Shown here: positions 34,722-42,200 of the stretch, piece by piece
Layout: each line of letters opens with the position of its first letter
How positions within the stretch are numbered: the stretch's first letter is position 1
Source: an uncultured Gemmatimonadales bacterium
GTDB lineage: Bacteria > Gemmatimonadota > Gemmatimonadetes > Gemmatimonadales > GWC2-71-9
Direction of reading: 5' to 3'
Assembly: GCA_963779755.1 (NCBI GenBank)
Contig: CAVZZO010000003.1
Coordinates: forward strand, 1,280,001 to 1,344,000
DNA length: 64,000 bases
Position numbers and translations under genes: made by a program
Notes under the pieces: generated by a model
What the model was told of the DNA's origin: nothing
The model's input: the letters and a program-made list of their open reading frames with translations, nothing else
The model's database searches: none

Positions 34722-36227
34722 TCAGTCCTTTACAATCTGCCCGCCGATCCATCCGGCGGCTGTCGTCTCACCTGAGTGCTCCACCAGCCGCCGCAGCTCA
34801 CGGACGCCGCCCTCGAAGGCGTACGCCTCGTAACCATCCCGTTGCATCAGCTCGGCCACCAGCGCCGACTGCACGCCGAAGCTGCAGTAGAGCACATAGC
34901 GCGCCGACTTCTCCAGCTTGCGGAAGTGGGTGGCCAGTTCGCTCAGGTCCCGGCGGACCGCCCCGGGATAGTGCCAGTTCTGGAAGTAGTGCGGCTCCCG
35001 GCAATCCAGCACTACCGTATCGCCTCCGAGCTCATGGGTGAAGAGATAGGGCCGCACCAGGTCGGACGGCTGGAGCGCGCGGAGATCCAGCACCCGGAGG
35101 CCGGCCAGTGCCTCCTGGAGCGGCGCGGGGTCCATGCACGCGTCCTGCTCCTCGGCCGCCTCGGGGGTACAGCGGGTGACCGGTCGGTCGCGGCCCAGAG
35201 CGCAGTACTCCCGGATGTGGGCGCTCAGGGCGGCGGTGCCCACCTGCCCGGCGCGCTCGATGATCTCGTTCTTGTCCAGCCCCACCAGCGGCCGCAGCAG
35301 CGGCAGCGAGACGCTGGTTTCGATGGCCCGCAGGTTGTGCAGCGTCTGCGAGCTGACCTGCCCCAGCGACTCGCCGGTGACAATCGCCTCGGCGCCGAGC
35401 GCGGTGGCCACGGATTCGGCGGCGCGATAGAAAAGCCGCTTCAGCACCACCTGCCAGAAGCGCGGCTCCACGGTACGGCGCAGCTCGTCCACCACCGGGC
35501 CGAACTCCAGCACGCGAATGGCCGGCCGGTAGCCGAACGACCAGCGTTCCGCCAGGACCTTCGCCACCGAAACGACCGACCGCTCGTAGGCTTCGCCGCC
35601 GAGATTGCAGAAGACGTATTCCAGCGCGACGCCGCGCTTGAGCATGAGCCAGGCCGCCACGGCGGAATCGAACCCGCCGGAGATGAGACAGACCGCCCTG
35701 CCCTCCACGCCCAGCGGCAGCCCCCCCGGTCCGGGGACCCTGGTGCTGTAGAACAGCGCCTCCTGCCCCCGCAGCTCCACGGTGACGGTGACATCCGGAT
35801 GGTCCAGATCGACGTCGCCGTAACGATCCAGCGCCGCCCCCAGCTGAACCATGATCTCGGTGGTGCCGAAGCCATAGCGCCCGTCGCGCCGGGCCCGCAC
35901 CGCGAACATGCGGTCGCGCACCCGCTCCGCGTACAGCGCTTCGCCCGTCCGTACGATCTCTTCCAGCACCGGCGCGCAGCGGGCTTCCACCACCGAAAGC
36001 GAGGACACCCCGAAGACCGCCCGCAGGTGCTGGGCGGCGGTTTCGGGATCCGGAGTCTCCACCATGATCCGGCTCCAGCGGTCCTCGATATGGGCCGGAA
36101 TACCGGCCGAGGCCAGGCAGTCCCGCAGGTTGGCGGCGAGCCGCTCCTGAAACCGGCGGCGGGTCCGGCGGCTCTTGGTGGCGATTTCGGGTGCCACCCG
36201 GATGAGGAGAAGGCCGGGCGAGGGCAT
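34722..36227 (-). CDS. thiI: tRNA 4-thiouridine synthase ThiI with C-terminal rhodanese domain
   Basis: THUMP domain, GPGGLPLGVEG, PP-loop SGGFDS, GESLGQVSSQT, LRPLVG, YCSFGVQS. Confidence 0.95.
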   Translation of the reverse strand: MPSPGLLLIRVAPEIATKSRRTRRRFQERLAANLRDCLASAGIPAHIEDRWSRIMVETPDPETAAQHLRAVFGVSSLSVVEARCAPVLEEIVRTGEALYAERVRDRMFAVRARRDGRYGFGTTEIMVQLGAALDRYGDVDLDHPDVTVTVELRGQEALFYSTRVPGPGGLPLGVEGRAVCLISGGFDSAVAAWLMLKRGVALEYVFCNLGGEAYERSVVSVAKVLAERWSFGYRPAIRVLEFGPVVDELRRTVEPRFWQVVLKRLFYRAAESVATALGAEAIVTGESLGQVSSQTLHNLRAIETSVSLPLLRPLVGLDKNEIIERAGQVGTAALSAHIREYCALGRDRPVTRCTPEAAEEQDACMDPAPLQEALAGLRVLDLRALQPSDLVRPYLFTHELGGDTVVLDCREPHYFQNWHYPGAVRRDLSELATHFRKLEKSARYVLYCSFGVQSALVAELMQRDGYEAYAFEGGVRELRRLVEHSGETTAAGWIGGQIVKD

Positions 36228-36238
36228 AAAGGAAAGAA

Positions 36239-36300
36239 GGCGGCAGGACGGCAGGACGGCAAGACGGCAGGACGGCAGGACGGCAGGACGGCAGGACGGT
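36239..36300 (+). repeat. GACGGCAG octamer array (about 7.5 units)
   Basis: Directly visible, immediately upstream of the thiI start. Confidence 0.9.
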
Positions 36301-36400
36301 CGCGCGGGAGGGGCCGACTGCCTATCTTTCGCGCCCTTGGCAGGGATCGCCGGTGCGCGGTCCCTCGACACTCGATCCTTTCGACCCTCACGACGACCGA

Positions 36401-36958
36401 ATGAAAGCTTCCGATATCCGCCGCGGACATGTGATCATGTTCGGTGGTCATCCCTGCCGCGTGATGGACTTTACCCATCGCACCCCGGGCAACCTGCGCG
36501 CGTTCGTGCAGGCCCGGATGCGGGACCTGACCACCGGGAACACCTTCGACCACCGCTTCAGCGCCACCGAGTTCGTCGACGAGGCACGGCTGGACACCAA
36601 GGAGCTGCAGGTGCTCTACCGTGACGCCTCCGGCGTGCATGTCATGGACCAGCAGACCTTCGACCAGTACATGCTGGACGAAGAGACCACCGGCGACCAG
36701 GGCACCTGGCTGGAGCCGGGGATGAACTTCCAGGCCGAGTTCCTGGAGGGGCGGCCCATCGCCATCATGCTGCCCTCGGTCATCGAGCTGGAAGTGGTGG
36801 AGACGGCGCCGGTCATGAAGACCGCCACCAAGACGGCCAGCACCAAGCCGGCCAAGCTGAGCAACGGCGTCACCGTCCAGGTGCCGGAGTTCATTCCCGA
36901 AGGCGAGCGTGTCCGGGTGAACCCGGCCACGGGCGAGTATCTGGAGCGGGCCAAGTAG
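36401..36958 (+). CDS. efp: Elongation factor P
   Basis: KOW loop HRTPGNLRAFVQ, MDQQTFDQ, TKPAKLSNGVTVQVPEFI..GE.VRV....GEYLERA. Confidence 0.93.
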   Translation: MKASDIRRGHVIMFGGHPCRVMDFTHRTPGNLRAFVQARMRDLTTGNTFDHRFSATEFVDEARLDTKELQVLYRDASGVHVMDQQTFDQYMLDEETTGDQGTWLEPGMNFQAEFLEGRPIAIMLPSVIELEVVETAPVMKTATKTASTKPAKLSNGVTVQVPEFIPEGERVRVNPATGEYLERAK

Positions 36959-37000
36959 GAGTGGGCAGAGTGGGCAGAATGGACAGAACAGAAGGTGCAC

Positions 37001-37036
37001 AAAAAGCGACCGCCCGGCTCCTCGAGTCGGGCGGTC
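37001..37036 (-). terminator. Rho-independent terminator
   Basis: Minus strand GACCGCCCGACTC-gag-GAGCCGGGCGGTC-gc-TTTTT. Confidence 0.75.
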
Positions 37037-37146
37037 TGGCATCGGGCGAATGGACTTTGGCGTCCACTCTCAGGAGGCCGGCTTGTTGCCGAGCCCCGTA
37101 GGTCCAGACTTCCCCCTACTAACTGCCCGGTGCCGTAGCTCACCTG
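37001..37146 (-). ncRNA. Unassigned structured small RNA candidate
   Basis: Closing stem 37125-37134/37038-37047, internal hairpins, own promoter and terminator, no convincing ORF. Confidence 0.6.
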
Positions 37147-37152
37147 AAAAGA

Positions 37153-37181
37153 AAGGTATTATCCACTGCATGAAGCGGCAA
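37153..37181 (-). promoter_or_regulatory. Sigma70-type promoter for the candidate sRNA
   Basis: TTGCCG-N17-TACCTT. Confidence 0.6.
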
Positions 37182-37209
37182 GGAAGCGCGAATGAAAAGA
37201 CGCCACACC

Positions 37210-38448
37210 CTAGGTCTTCCCACTCTGCCCACTCTGCGAAAGAATGGTCGCCGCCACCATCGTGCCCGTCACATTAGCCGTGGTTCGGAACATGTCGGGG
37301 ATGGTATCCACGCCCAGCAGGATACCCAGCCCCTGCGCCGGAATGCCGACCGAGCTGAGCAGCGGCAGCATGATGAGAATGCTCCCGCCCGGGACGCCGG
37401 GGATGCTGAAGGTGAGGAGAATGGTCGTGATCCCCACGGTCAGCAGCTGCGCCGCCGAGAGCTCGATCCCGTAGAGCCGCGCCAGGAACAGGATGCCCAC
37501 CGGCAGCCCTACCGTGCCGCCCAGCCGGAAGGTAGAAGCGGAGATGGGCAGGAAGAGATCGCGAATGGCCGGGGGGAAGCCCAGCTGCCGCTCCCCCTCC
37601 TCCATCATGGTGGGAAGCGCCGCCAGGGATGAGCGCCCGCTGAAGGCGATCGCCTGGGCGGGCGCGGCGCCCCGCGCAAACCGGACGGGCGAGACCCGCG
37701 CCGCCAGGGCCACCACCGGATAGAGCAGCACGAGAATGAGCATGGTCAGCCCAACCACCACGCCGATATACCAGGCGACCGCCTCGAGCGTGCGGAAGCC
37801 CAGGTGAGCCGCGAGGGGCAACGCCAGGGCAAAGACGCCGATCGGCGCCAGCTCGAGCAGCCAGCGTACCAGCGTCAGCATGGCGGTGAACACGGCGCGG
37901 GTGAACCGGATCACCAGCTCCGACTGCTCGGCGGGGATGCGGCTCACGGCCAGGCCGGCGGCGATGGAGAACACGATGAGCGGGAGCAGCGCACCATCCG
38001 CCGCCGATTTCACCACGTTGGTGGGAATGAGGGCTACCAGCCACTGGCGCAGATCGGGCAGGCCGGTGGCCGGCGGTGCGGCGGCCGCGCCGGCGCTGGC
38101 GCGCAGGGCCTGGGCCGCCTCGGGCACCAGATGGAACCCGCGGAGCAGCAGGGGGCCCAGCGTCAGAGTGAGAGCCGTCCCGCCGGCAAGAAGCAGGACG
38201 AAAATCGCCAGGCTCTGCCAGCCGAGCCGGCCCAGCTGCCGGCTCTCCCGGCTGGAGCCGGCGCCGGCAATGAGGCCCGAGACCACCAGCGGGATGATGG
38301 TCATGCGCAGCGCATTGATCCAGAGCGTGCCCAGCGGCTCGATCCAGCGCACGGCGCCGTCCAGCGCGGGCTGATGGGCCAGCGAGACCAGGATACCTGC
38401 CACCAGTCCGGCGACCAGGCCCAGCACCACACGCACGGTAAGGGACAT
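37210..38448 (-). CDS. Dicarboxylate/amino acid:cation symporter (DAACS)
   Basis: ALRMTIIPLV, IPTN, APIGVFAL, AFSGRSSLAALP, PGVPG, VDTIPDMFRTTANVTG. Confidence 0.92.
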   Translation of the reverse strand: MSLTVRVVLGLVAGLVAGILVSLAHQPALDGAVRWIEPLGTLWINALRMTIIPLVVSGLIAGAGSSRESRQLGRLGWQSLAIFVLLLAGGTALTLTLGPLLLRGFHLVPEAAQALRASAGAAAAPPATGLPDLRQWLVALIPTNVVKSAADGALLPLIVFSIAAGLAVSRIPAEQSELVIRFTRAVFTAMLTLVRWLLELAPIGVFALALPLAAHLGFRTLEAVAWYIGVVVGLTMLILVLLYPVVALAARVSPVRFARGAAPAQAIAFSGRSSLAALPTMMEEGERQLGFPPAIRDLFLPISASTFRLGGTVGLPVGILFLARLYGIELSAAQLLTVGITTILLTFSIPGVPGGSILIMLPLLSSVGIPAQGLGILLGVDTIPDMFRTTANVTGTMVAATILSQSGQSGKT

Positions 38449-38459
38449 GGAGGCGCGCC

Positions 38460-39233
38460 TCAGCGCTCGCCCAGGATCGGCTGGCGTCTGGGCCCGCGGG
38501 CGAAATCGGGCGCATGGACCTCGGCGCTGTGCCGGATAGCTTCGATTGCCAGATCGCAGGAATCGGTGGCCGTGAGCAGACCGATATCGTCTTCGCCGAT
38601 GGTAGCTTCGGGCACCAGGCTGCGCTCCAGGAAATCGAGCATCGGCCGCCAGTAGTCCACACCCATCAGGATGATGGGAAAGACTTTCATCTTGCCGGTC
38701 TGCGCCAGCGTGAGCGATTCGAACAGCTCATCCAGCGTCCCGAAGCCGCCGGGCATGACCACGAAGGCGATGCTGTACTTGACCAGCATCACCTTGCGCA
38801 CGAAGAAGTGCCGGAAGGTGATGAACCGGTCCACGTAGGGATTGGGCTTCTGCTCCTGGGGCAGCTCGATGTTGCAGCCGAGGGACCGGCCTCCGGCCTC
38901 CTGCGCCCCGCGGTTGGCCGCCTCCATGATGCCGGGACCGCCGCCGGTCATGACGGTCAGGCCGGTGCCCGCAATGCGGCCGCCCATCTCGCGGGCCAGC
39001 TGATAATAGCGATGGCCTTCCTGAAAGCGCGCGCTGCCGAACACGGTAACGCAGGGCCCCACGAAATGCAGCGCCCGGAAGCCGTGAATGAACTCCCGGG
39101 CGATTCGGCCGACGTGGCCGAGCTCGCTGAGCCGCGAACGCGGCCCCACCAGCCAGTCGCGCACCTCGTCGGTGAGGGGCTCGGGCACGAGGCGGTCCAG
39201 CAGCGAGCCCGGTTCCGGCTCGGGATTGCTCAT
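38460..39233 (-). CDS. LOG family (TIGR00730) nucleotide phosphoribohydrolase
   Basis: VTVFGSAR, TGGGPGIMEAANRGA, FFVRKVM, PGGFGTLDE; ATGA overlap with the addA-like stop. Confidence 0.92.
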   Translation of the reverse strand: MSNPEPEPGSLLDRLVPEPLTDEVRDWLVGPRSRLSELGHVGRIAREFIHGFRALHFVGPCVTVFGSARFQEGHRYYQLAREMGGRIAGTGLTVMTGGGPGIMEAANRGAQEAGGRSLGCNIELPQEQKPNPYVDRFITFRHFFVRKVMLVKYSIAFVVMPGGFGTLDELFESLTLAQTGKMKVFPIILMGVDYWRPMLDFLERSLVPEATIGEDDIGLLTATDSCDLAIEAIRHSAEVHAPDFARGPRRQPILGER

Positions 39234-42200
39234 GCGGGGCTCTCCCCTTTCCGGACGGCACCGGGGCACCATCCCGGCCGGCGATAGCCGCAGAAACGGC
39301 ACTCGTGCGGGTGGTCCGTCAGGGCCGGTGCTCCCCCACCCAGCCGCTCCAGCCAGGTCCGGAGGCGCGCCGCCATCTCCCCACGCGCCGCAGCGTCGAG
39401 CTCCTCGGAGACCTGCACCCCGGCGCGCGAGAACTGAAAAGCGAACCGGCCCACCGGCAGGCCCGCCAGGGCCTGGGCGCTGCTGACGTAGACGTCCCGC
39501 TGCGGCGCATACTGGCGCGCCTTCGCCGCCGCCCCCGTCTCATCGCAACGGCTGGTCTTCACGTCGAGCAACACCAGATGGTCGCCCTCGGGGGCCGCCA
39601 GGTCGATGGCCCCCTGAAAGACGATCGCGGGCCCGTCCAGCCGCAAGAAGGGAAGCTCCCGCCGGCTGCCCGGCAGATCGTCCACCGCCCGGTAGGCCGG
39701 GTTCTCCGATACCAGGGTGATCTCTTCCCGTAACGCGCGGCGGGACGCCTCGCCCTGGGGACTGTCGGGCGGCGGATGATCTTCATCCCACCGGCCGATG
39801 GCGTCTGCCAGCAGCTGGTCCAGCTCGTCCTCCACCCGCAGGTGCTCCAGCACATCGTGCACGATGAGGCCGCGGGTCACCGCATCCAGGAACTCCGGCG
39901 TGCCCCGGTCCACCTCCGGCTCGCGCACGCCGAGGACGTACTTGAACCAGTGGCGGGTCTGGCAGCGGCTCCACACCAGGAATTCGCTGGCGGAATGGCG
40001 GCCGCGGCCCACGGGTCCCGCGACTGGCTCCAGCGGGCCCGCCAGGCTCGCGGGGTCGCCCAGCGGGGCCGGCTCCGGCTCAGCCCCGGCCTTCGCGGCC
40101 GCGCCTCGAGCCAGGTGCACCACCGCCTGAACCGGGCTGGCTCCCAGCCCGACGCTGAGCGCCTGGCCGTCTTCCCACGGCGTCCCGGGAAGTACCGACA
40201 GCAGCTGCCTGGAGGGGTCGGTTCCCCCGCCCTTCCGCTTGCCGAGGGCCAGGCCGGAAATCACCAGCCGGCGCCGGGCACGGGTCGCCGCCACGTACCA
40301 CAGACGCCGCGCCTCGGCCTGCTCCTCGGCTTCGATAGCCTGCTGGATGTCCTGCCACTCCTGGGGCGCGTCGCGGGACCGGACCTCGGGCGACTTGAGC
40401 GCCAGACGGTCGCGTCCCACCAGCAGGTCCTGCCGCGAGGAGACGCCGACCTGCCGGGTGAGATCGCACCAGAAGACGACGTCCCACTCCAGTCCCTTGG
40501 CCGAATGAATGGACGTGAGGGTGACGACGTCGTCTCTGTCGCCGTGCAGCGGCGCGTCGCCCACGCGATCGTGACGCCCCCGCATGTCGCGGATCGCCTG
40601 CAGAAACTCTCCCAGGCCGCCCTGGCGCGCCCCCCGCGCCATCCGCACGAACTTGCGCAGGTTGGCGATCGCCTGCGCCCGGCCCTCGCCCAGCAGCGCC
40701 AGGTGGGCGACGTAGCCGCTGGCGTCCAGCAGCGCCTGCAGCAGCTCGTCCGGCGGCAGCCGGTCGCGCAGCGCGGCGAACTGTTCCAGCAAGGCGGTAC
40801 CTTCCCGGAGCCGCTCCGCCTCGCCCACCGTAACCGCGCCCAGGTGGCGCCACACCGGCGAGCGCGCCTGGCGGGCGATATCCAGCAGGGTCTCGTCCCG
40901 CAGGCCCACGAAGGGGCTGCGGAGAAAGCCCATGACCGCCCGGTCGTCGGACGGGTCGCGGATGGCCTCGAGCGCCACGATTAGATCGACGACCTCGCGC
41001 CGCTGGAAAAACCCTTCGGTCCGCAGGAGGTAGGTGCGCGCCCCTACCCGTTGGAGCGCCTCCTGGAAGAGGTCCACCGATCCCCAGCTGGTAAAGAGCA
41101 GCGCCATGTCGCCCCAGCGCACGCCTTCTTCGTGGTGCAGCGCACGGGCGCGCCGCGCCACGGCCTCGGCTTCGATCATCCGGACGACGTCGGTGCGGGG
41201 CGCCTCACCCTCGGCATCGGGCGGCACGGCGATGAGCTCCACCGGAAGGCCGCCCTGCTGTTCGCTGGTGCCGGGATGCAGGGGCTCGAACGGGACTTCG
41301 AAGTCGCGCAGGGCCTCGCCCTCCAGCGGGCGGTCCAGCAGCCGGCCCAGGGTGCTCTCTACAAACCCGAGGATGGATGCGGTGCTCCGGAAGTTCTCGG
41401 TCAGCGGCAGCACCAGGCCCGTCTCGTCCTGCCGGAAATCCCGCTCCACCGCGCGCCACACGGTGACATCGGCCCGGCGGAACCGGTAAATGCTCTGCTT
41501 GGCGTCCCCCACCAGGAGCAGCCGGGTCGTGTCGGCCCGGCGGGAGGCGGGTTCGCCGAGCAGGTAGGCGATCTCGCGCTGCACCGGGTCGACGTCCTGG
41601 AACTCGTCCACGATGAGCGTATGAATCCGGCGCTGCAGCATGCGGCGCGCCGCGATATCGTCGCGCAGCAGGTCGCGGGTCCAGACGATCATCCGGTCGA
41701 AGTCCACCGCGCCGCGCTCTTCCAGGCGGGTGATCAGCCGGCCCACCGCCTCGCGGGCCAGCGCCAGCAGCGCCTGGGCGCCTTCGTCGCCGGCGCTCGC
41801 CGGCTGGAGCTGCTGCAGCCGGTCCGATTCGGCGAGCAGCGCGGCCACATAGTCCAGCACCTTCGACACGGGATGCTCGGCCAGCAGGGCGCCGAGTCCC
41901 GGCGTGGTGTCGCTGTCCAGGGCGTCCAGCAGCGTCTCCCGGGCCACGTCCGAGGCCAGCGCCGCCGCGATCCCCTCCTCCAGTACCTCACCCACCGGCG
42001 GCCGCCCCCGCCGCAGCGCGAACTCCCGCAGCACCTCGCCGCAGAAACGGTGGATGGTACCGATCCGGGCGGTATCCACCTCCCAGGCCACCTCCGGCCG
42101 GCCGGCCTGGCGCAGCGCGTCGCGCAGTTTTTCCTGGAGGTCGGCCGCCGCGCGGTTGGTAAAGGTGATGGCCGCCAGCCGGCGGAGCGGGAGCGGCTGG

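Follow-up and report, generated by a model that had tools for sequence, protein, structure and literature searches.

Small RNA genes that belong to a transcription-factor regulon and end in a terminator of their own are known from Enterobacteria, where FnrS and OmrA/OmrB are Hfq-dependent seed-pairing RNAs with conserved single-stranded seeds. The subject of this work is a structured RNA of ~146 nt, predicted on the minus strand between the gene of a sodium:dicarboxylate symporter (SDF/DAACS) and efp in a 64,000-nt stretch of DNA, hereafter the window, from an uncultured Gemmatimonadales bacterium (assembly GCA_963779755.1, contig CAVZZO010000003.1). In contrast to the enterobacterial RNAs, its conservation lies in a four-way junction core and not in a seed, and Hfq was not found. 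Gemmatimonadota are an abundant soil phylum which is hard to culture. The element is almost certainly a real conserved structured RNA gene and probably the RNA member of a low-oxygen/starvation stress response, a role that is likely for the protein genes under the same promoter.

In logic, the closest analogue is DrrS (MTS1338) of M. tuberculosis, likewise a stand-alone small RNA with its core promoter in a dormancy/hypoxia-type two-component regulon (PMC5360333), a regulon type that is a prediction in our case. The two RNAs come from different phyla and are unrelated in sequence and in structure, and the present one is without an Rfam match. On the side of the promoter, ArcA of E. coli offers the nearest likeness. 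It is an OmpR-family regulator treated in PMC3798270 mainly as a global regulator of carbon oxidation; most of its sites consist of three to five direct repeats with an 11-bp centre-to-centre distance, and multiple repeats are noted there for OmpR and PhoB as well. The redox/oxygen-limitation physiology of ArcA fits the gene content found here, the differences being the repeat core CTTCA and the fixed, activator-like distance of the putative sites from the -10 hexamer. In shape, the RNA resembles SAM-I-type four-way-junction riboswitches, 6S RNA and Y RNA in that a multi-helix junction is conserved and the peripheral loops are variable, which is typical of shape-recognised RNAs; it differs from them by the absence of a family match, of a conserved downstream gene and of a Ro/TROVE protein, and by not being the long bubble-bearing hairpin of 6S RNA.

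Distribution, fold and identity of the RNA

A blastn search with the 181-nt element in 60 relatives from other genera, a check that had been suggested together with the initial sequence-only reading of the locus, returned no real homologue, the lone match being 24 nt of the terminator. A covariance model made from the window sequence alone and its minimum-energy fold (R1) gave full-length matches of 39–65 bits in six other genera of the window's family. Models R2, built from seven sequences, and R3, built from 24, matched 22 and 25, respectively, of 150 other genomes of this family, the latter corresponding to 19 of 78 genera with the window's own included. The window's core scores 130.8 bits with R1, 104.9 with R2 and 87.4 with R3. 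In total, the RNA was detected in 27 other genomes, in one copy each as in the window's genome and all of them within the same family of Gemmatimonadales; these genome counts are lower bounds, as strict filters were applied in the large searches and only 25 candidates were scored per genome. When the phylum was sampled with R3, 10 of 71 genomes from the window's own family and none of 79 from eleven other families had a match; for R2 in an order-level sample, the yield in the three families was 8 of 61, 1 of 62 and 0 of 27 genomes. The RNA family is, as far as these searches reach, confined to part of one Gemmatimonadales family, that is, to some soil Gemmatimonadaceae. Neither 29 related efp loci (R1) nor 80 named Gemmatimonadales efp loci (R2) had an RNA match beside this gene. 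Genome G014 supplies negative rows only, including one negative efp locus, and no positive claim rests on it.

Several matches at the margin were judged individually. The sole match outside the family (L061, 31 bits) was without promoter site and without terminator, and it was considered false and dropped before R3 was built. The weak R1 matches L041, L042 and L043 (22–28 bits) lay inside long open reading frames (ORFs), did not recur with R2 or R3 and were dropped too. L164 and L165 (36–38 bits), each of which has a clear terminator and a promoter at a distance of 9 nt upstream, were accepted as real, divergent members.

The 150-nt minus-strand RNA folds with -76.2 kcal/mol (z = -4.43, with 0 of 200 shuffles folding as well), and the plus strand folds equally well (z = -5.53), so that folding energy cannot decide the strand. 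The evidence for the fold comes from compensatory change. In an alignment of 28 sequences (A8; the window and 27 other genomes), whose pair counts were compared with 500 shuffles by five measures, 87.7% of 863 cells were in standard pairs vs 72.3% in the shuffles, double-sided changes occurred in 23 of 31 pairs (128 cells), and none of the five measures was reached by any shuffle (0/500). The covariation score of A8 was 0.438, compared to 0.059–0.114 with the 3' partners slid by 1–3 columns. By helix, P1 (nine pairs) had 92.1% of its cells paired and double-sided changes in eight pairs, P4 (eight pairs) 89.3% and seven, P3 (nine pairs) 85.3% and six, and P2 (five pairs) 81.5% and two. A model-free check by MAFFT and RNAalifold with 26 raw sequences recovered P1, P4 and part of P3, 16 of its 20 predicted pairs being compensatory.

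Most of the helices proposed from the sequence survived this analysis. The closing stem of the sequence-only reading, GGCACCGGGC with GCCCGAUGCC, is P1, and its CGGC-AACAA-GCCG (37091-37079) and GAGUGGAC-GCCAAA-GUCCAUUC hairpins are where it had put them. The proposed AGGGGG/CCUCCU helix was lost: complementary in the window sequence alone, it pairs in 53.4% of cells vs 53.8% in shuffles, and covariation instead backs GUAGG/CCUAC (P2) and GGGGC/GCCUC (the base of P3).

The conservation is centred on the junction. In 24 sequences the inner P1 pairs CGGGC/GCCCG are retained in 22–24, each of P2, P3 and P4 has a conserved first pair and the junction residue A15 is retained in 22, while the P2, P3 and P4 loops are variable in both sequence and length. 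The linkers are 5 nt between P1 and P2 (A, G-rich, purine at the end), 0 between P2 and P3, 4 nt between P3 and P4 (mostly ending with GA) and 0 between P4 and P1. The second pair of P3 (37096 with 37075) is GU in 11, AC in five, AU in three, GC in three and UU in two of the 24 sequences, i.e., wobble-shaped in 16; because G-U and A-C can take the same wobble shape, this hints at a functionally important wobble beside the junction. The P2 hairpin is longer and of variable length in other genomes, and a part of its loop (GAAGUC/GAUGUC) recurs in a few members. A new covariation-supported RNA family that is conserved in the junction core rather than in a seed represents an unusual pattern.

The structure could, in principle, belong to the 3' untranslated region or terminator of the SDF gene, or be a chance fold of GC-rich intergenic DNA, in either case without a function of its own. 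In its favour, the stretch from the SDF stop codon (37210) to the element showed no terminator, and the plus strand folds equally well. This explanation is nevertheless already contradicted by the conservation data and has a negligible probability: the homologues occupy unrelated contexts with a conserved promoter of their own, the SDF genes that adjoin the RNA in the window's genome and in genus g18 share only 30% identity and differ in orientation, and compensatory change affects three quarters of the pairs (23/31).

The sequence-only reading had recognised no known RNA class in the element, and the database searches agree with it. Rfam 15 (4227 models) gave no match at gathering score across the 64-kb window and no family match in 20 homologous loci (60 kb), while a relaxed search of 36850-37350 yielded chance-level matches only (E 2.3 or worse). 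For tRNA and tmRNA, ARAGORN detected no gene in 36000-38000; the loops lack conservation, and the spacing at the junction (5, 0, 4, 0 nt) is only loosely tRNA-like. The SRP RNA of the genome (RF00169) sits elsewhere, at G000:C3:588093-588192, with 45 bits, i.e., above cut-off. The 6S RNA is an extended hairpin of about 180 nt with a central bubble; its model, RF00013, matched nowhere in the genome, although it is a weak model with a positive control matched in only 5 of 14 known genomes, and the fold supported here is a four-way junction. Y RNA of the YrlA type co-occurs with a Ro/Rsr (TROVE) protein, usually encoded next to it; no TROVE domain was found in the genome and the neighbours are unrelated.

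A catalytic RNA based on the four-way junction, for instance a small self-cleaving ribozyme, would be compatible with the conserved junction purines, and the best match of the relaxed Rfam search was indeed Twister-sister (RF02681). That match reached 15.2 bits (E = 2.3), where the gathering score is 34, and was aligned mainly to the terminator; furthermore, no conserved internal loops of the ribozyme kind were seen and the 20 homologous loci matched no ribozyme family, which leaves a catalytic RNA highly improbable. In the literature searched, no paper was found on small or structured RNAs or gene regulation of Gemmatimonadota or on the regulon described below, with the proviso that the supplementary motif lists of large RNA screens, which were outside the search, could hold the motif under another name. 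The RNA thus apparently represents a conserved structured small RNA family that has so far been undescribed.

The promoter signal and its regulon

Most homologues are preceded by three repeats, whose starts lie 38, 27 and 16 nt ahead of a TAnnnT hexamer. The hexamers TTGCCG (37181-37176) and TACCTT, separated by 17 nt, had been proposed as the -35 and -10 elements of the window RNA, and both are present as described. TACCTT stands as the predicted -10; TTGCCG had to be given up as the -35, the conserved upstream signal being three TTCA-type repeats 11 nt apart.

A first matrix, made from 15 RNA promoters of other genera with the window's own left out, gave 19.1 bits for the promoter of the window RNA; with 18 bits as the minimum, it found 40 positions in the window's genome vs 0 in 6 Mb of shuffled sequence. 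A second matrix was made from 31 of these genome sites, with the RNA promoter excluded, and had the consensus CTTCA-N6-CTTCA-N7-TTCA-N12-TAnnnT. It found 74 genome sites of at least 14 bits vs 6 in 6 Mb of shuffled sequence, and the RNA promoter, with 30.7 bits, was the best of the 74 outside the training set. When the second matrix was applied to both strands of the 3-kb loci of the homologues, the top-scoring site of the entire locus was 2–13 nt ahead of the RNA in 19 of 25 other genomes; 18 of these sites had 19–34 bits and that of L044 just 9 bits. L040 has a 22-bit site at the same distance, and in L050, L055, L058 and L163 the best site (26–37 bits) is 98–116 nt upstream of the RNA. With L164 and L165 added, 25 of 27 other genomes have the signal ahead of the RNA (21 proximal, four ~100 nt upstream), the remaining two, L052 and L044, being weak. 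A promoter of its own, as the sequence-only reading had proposed for the RNA, is thus backed by conservation. Membership of the RNA in this promoter regulon is very likely.

In genus g18 and in the genus of L050, the leader between the promoter and the RNA core is conserved, folds strongly (-45 to -58 kcal/mol) and is closed by GCGUC...GRCGC. A two-domain version of the RNA, about 250 nt long, seems to exist in L050, L055, L058 and L163.

The same signal marks about 40–70 promoters in the window's genome. The content of the regulon was assessed by a Pfam scan of the first ORF after 40 predicted genome sites. The first 20 sites (16 with a family) precede genes for Usp (2), CBS (2), Hsp20, nitroreductase, phosphoribosyltransferase (2), pyruvate:ferredoxin oxidoreductase, malic enzyme, di-haem cytochrome c peroxidase, molybdopterin oxidoreductase, a cbb3-type cytochrome c domain, a PLP enzyme, an ArsA-like ATPase and a helix-hairpin-helix protein. 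The next 20 (13 with a family) precede those for flavodoxin, GGDEF, a PPDK/PEP-synthase-type enzyme, multihaem cytochrome c, 1-Cys peroxiredoxin, P-type ATPase, the NiFe-hydrogenase small subunit, a CLC-CBS channel, TonB_C, an outer-membrane beta-barrel, a hydrolase and others. Genes of this kind are also neighbours of the RNA in some other genomes: in L052 those of CBS and a hibernation factor, in L036 those of a BON protein and a GAF kinase, and in L054 that of a PLP enzyme. Two more such promoters are located inside the window, at ~5902 (-) and ~47325 (-), before an Hsp20 gene and a malic-enzyme gene.

This gene set resembles hypoxia/dormancy regulons such as mycobacterial DosR, whose proteins include Usp, Hsp20/alpha-crystallin, nitroreductase, CBS proteins and phosphoribosyltransferases, as on the protein side here. 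DosR itself is a NarL-type regulator with a palindromic box, whereas the present promoter, with three direct repeats 11 nt apart, is of the OmpR-family style. The promoter signal thus outlines a regulon of survival genes (Usp, Hsp20, nitroreductase, hydrogenase, pyruvate:ferredoxin oxidoreductase), an apparent counterpart of the actinobacterial dormancy regulons. A response to hypoxia or energy limitation is the somewhat favoured interpretation of this content. According to PMC2682197, the Usp gene rv2623 is one of those with the strongest induction under hypoxia and nitrosative stress.

By analogy with ArcA, we infer that the TTCA-type repeats are binding sites of an OmpR-type response regulator. 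The window's genome has five clear OmpR-type regulators. One of them belongs to a candidate sensor kinase and regulator pair (G000:C3:716179-718253), in which a GAF-HisKA-HATPase kinase (716179-717453) is followed by a Response_reg + Trans_reg_C regulator (717513-718253). The pair is located within the regulon gene set; it stands back to back with the top-ranked Usp promoter and beside the nitroreductase promoter, and a P-type ATPase gene comes after it. It is put forward tentatively, at somewhat less than even odds, as the regulator of the regulon. Kinase, OmpR-type regulator and P-type ATPase form an operon at G000:C3:716179-720082 (locus L167:80-3983).

Independence of the gene and its possible mode of action

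The RNA has both attributes of a regulon-embedded small RNA, namely a promoter with the regulon signal and a Rho-independent terminator of its own. The terminator with a U5 tract that had been read from the sequence is present in the window, its hairpin having -21.3 kcal/mol and being followed by TTTTT according to our own script, and it was not listed by a simple terminator scan of the window. Among 26 loci, a terminator-like hairpin with a U-run was found on the RNA strand in 16 vs 1 on the opposite strand, 10 loci having none by the criteria applied; judged by eye, L164 and L165 add two more. The G-U asymmetry is mixed, as had been noted earlier (50 G-U/U-G cells vs 37 A-C/C-A cells), so the strand call rests on the promoter and the terminator, which are now both backed by conservation.

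The genes beside the RNA change from genome to genome. In the window, the next gene past the RNA is the convergent efp and no same-strand gene follows; the downstream gene is also convergent in L038, L045, L052, L053, L056, L058 and L163. A same-strand downstream gene is present in eight loci, the families being mutually unrelated: ABC ATPase, histidine kinase, DUF5916, CheR, glucose/sorbosone dehydrogenase, CLC channel, PALP enzyme and GGACT. The varying neighbours and the convergent downstream genes argue for a stand-alone RNA gene and against a cis riboswitch, in line with the sequence-only reading. From promoter and terminator positions, it is a predicted independent small RNA gene of ~146 nt on the minus strand.

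The same data bear on the view that the element is a cis-acting leader, riboswitch-like or protein-dependent, which switches terminator read-through, or a ligand-sensing aptamer that ends transcription. Such a leader would share the junction-centred conservation of aptamers, the eight same-strand loci would provide it with a gene to control, and the P1 3' motif CGCCCGR, which appears again in the 5' arm of the terminator, would make alternative pairings possible. This view is nonetheless improbable: the RNA has no 5'-leader position before genes of shared function, given the unrelated families of the same-strand genes and the convergent next gene in at least eight loci, the window included; the shared motif would swap one terminator arm for another before the same U-tract, with no obvious antiterminator; and its enrichment is also explicable by relatedness of the terminators.

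Our preferred explanation, with a probability of roughly 0.5 as a whole, is a regulon-driven structured stress RNA acting via its folded core. The repeats would be bound by an OmpR-type response regulator, possibly that of the GAF-kinase/OmpR-type pair, and the regulon would answer oxygen or energy limitation; since the RNA carries the regulon promoter, it would be made under the same stress. Its folded core would then serve as a platform for a protein, as decoy or scaffold, or for a small ligand. Core binding rather than seed pairing with mRNAs is a tentative choice, to which we give a little less than an even chance. It is suggested by the junction-centred conservation, the freely varying loops and the almost complete lack of a single-stranded tail: in 21 of 27 other genomes no more than 2–13 nt separate the end of the -10 from the modelled core, leaving a short 5' tail only, and the predicted transcript contains little beyond the junction and the terminator. 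Pfam searches of the window's genome (97% complete), which gave no match for Hfq, ProQ/FinO or CsrA, point in the same direction.

The RNA might alternatively be a classical trans-acting base-pairing small RNA that forms the repressor arm of the regulon, with a loop or a junction strand pairing with mRNAs and the fold serving for stability only. The regulon-type promoter, the own Rho-independent terminator and the recurring piece of the P2 loop suit such an RNA, and small RNAs embedded in stress regulons are common, DrrS being activated by DosR in M. tuberculosis (PMC5360333). Yet there is no conserved single-stranded stretch, the three loops vary while the junction-proximal helices are nearly invariant, the transcript is predicted to begin at or near P1 in most genomes, and Hfq and ProQ were not found in the window's genome. 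Base pairing as the mode of action is accordingly rather unlikely.

Several points weigh against a regulon-driven stress RNA acting through its core. The alignments behind the pair counts were fitted to a covariance model, which favours the structure, and P2 is poorly supported by the counts given above. The promoter matrix was seeded by our own rule for choosing the -10 and repeat positions, and the stimulus of the regulon was read from gene content alone. With regard to the regulator, the site ending at the start of its gene is weak (15.4 bits), and a rival, a small GerE/sigma-70-region-4 protein, is encoded near regulon sites in the L168 cluster. The gene neighbourhood points to no partner protein or ligand. 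Hfq-independent base-pairing small RNAs exist, and loops that vary between genera can still pair with targets. Four out of five congeners of positive genomes were without a match in a laxer search with 150 candidates scored; this patchy detection would make the RNA either dispensable or diverged beyond the model. Finally, four of six soil sequencing runs (each sharing 0.05 of words) gave cover, from relatives, on efp and a short part of the SDF gene only and none on 36968-37261, which says nothing either way.

If the RNA does bind a protein or a ligand via its core, it would be a new type of stress RNA in a lineage apparently without the usual RNA chaperones. A more specific version, which we consider unlikely, is a new class of stand-alone, shape-recognised regulatory RNAs, in which the junction core with its kept wobble would be an aptamer for a metabolite or second messenger of oxygen/energy limitation, or a docking site for a regulon protein (Usp, CBS or similar). 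If true, this would mean an RNA sensor or sponge in a phylum apparently without Hfq, ProQ and CsrA, inside an undescribed persistence regulon of a GAF kinase and an OmpR-type regulator.

Layout of the locus and minor observations

On the minus strand, the sequence reads from the SDF/DAACS stop codon at 37210 through the three repeats, TACCTT and the structured core to the final hairpin with U5 (Table 1). The transcript is inferred to start at ~37147-37145, 6–8 nt past the -10, and to end within the U-tract.

Table 1. Features of the RNA gene and of its two flanking genes in the window, in minus-strand order.
Feature	Position	Strand	Basis or remark
SDF/DAACS sodium:dicarboxylate symporter gene	37210..38448	-	Pfam PF00375, E = 2.3e-87; upstream, same strand, outside the RNA
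Phased promoter repeats, 11 nt apart	TTCA 37196-37193, TTCC 37185-37182, TTCA 37174-37171 (span 37171..37196)	-	putative response-regulator binding sites
-10 hexamer TACCTT, TAnnnT type	37153..37158	-	12 nt past the third repeat; predicted -10 role
Predicted transcript, ~146 nt	37001..37146	-	from promoter and terminator positions
Conserved 102-nt core, four-way junction	37036..37137	-	covariance-model match
Folded core, P1 and three hairpins	37038..37134	-	fold and covariation
P1 5' strand GGCACCGGGC	37125..37134	-	inner CGGGC nearly invariant
J1/2 AGUUA	37124-37120	-	directly after the P1 5' strand
P2 hairpin GUAGG, 12-nt loop, CCUAC	37098..37119	-	covariation; weakest helix
P3 hairpin GGGGC-U-CGGC, loop AACAA, GCCG-GCCUC	37074..37097	-	second pair a G-U wobble
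J3/4 CUGA	37073-37070	-	directly after P3
P4 hairpin GAGUGGAC, loop GCCAAA, GUCCAUUC	37048..37069	-	covariation; RNAalifold on MAFFT alignment
P1 3' strand GCCCGAUGCC	37038..37047	-	fold, RNAalifold, covariation
Intrinsic terminator, stem GACCGCCCG / CGGGCGGUC (37036-37028 with 37016-37008), then GC and U5 (37005-37001)	37001..37036	-	sequence and fold
efp (elongation factor P)	36353..36958	+	Pfam EFP_N, EFP, Elong-fact-P_C; convergent downstream gene, outside the RNA

The P1 3' strand motif (C)CGCCCGR is repeated in the 5' arm of the terminator in the window (37036-37028 vs 37048-37042) and in L035, L053, L055, L056, L057 and L166. As read from the listed hairpins, GCCCG occurs in 7 of 16 RNA terminators vs 8 of 75 terminator-like sites genome-wide. 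The repeated motif may reflect alternative pairing or common descent. In L054, a run of seven U directly follows P1 and there is no separate terminator hairpin, so that P1 may double as the terminator stem.

Three neighbours were considered as clues to a partner and rejected. The SDF gene was discarded on the low identity and different orientation mentioned above, and a Lactamase_B_3 gene precedes the RNA only in genus g18. A MacB/LolD-like ABC ATPase occurs in L035:621-1367, L056:1708-2418 and L057:1708-2418; the proteins of L035 and L056 are orthologous (78% identical) and L057 has an ABC_tran gene at the same position. Its orientation to the RNA differs: in L035 it is a same-strand downstream gene, and in L056 and L057 it is divergent.

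In the window, a LOG-like gene (Lysine_decarbox/SLOG; 38460-39302, minus strand) is separated from the RNA by the SDF gene; in L035 such a gene (1656-2495) is the immediate neighbour of the RNA. It is the only trace of shared synteny between the window's genome and L035, which is the closest homologue.

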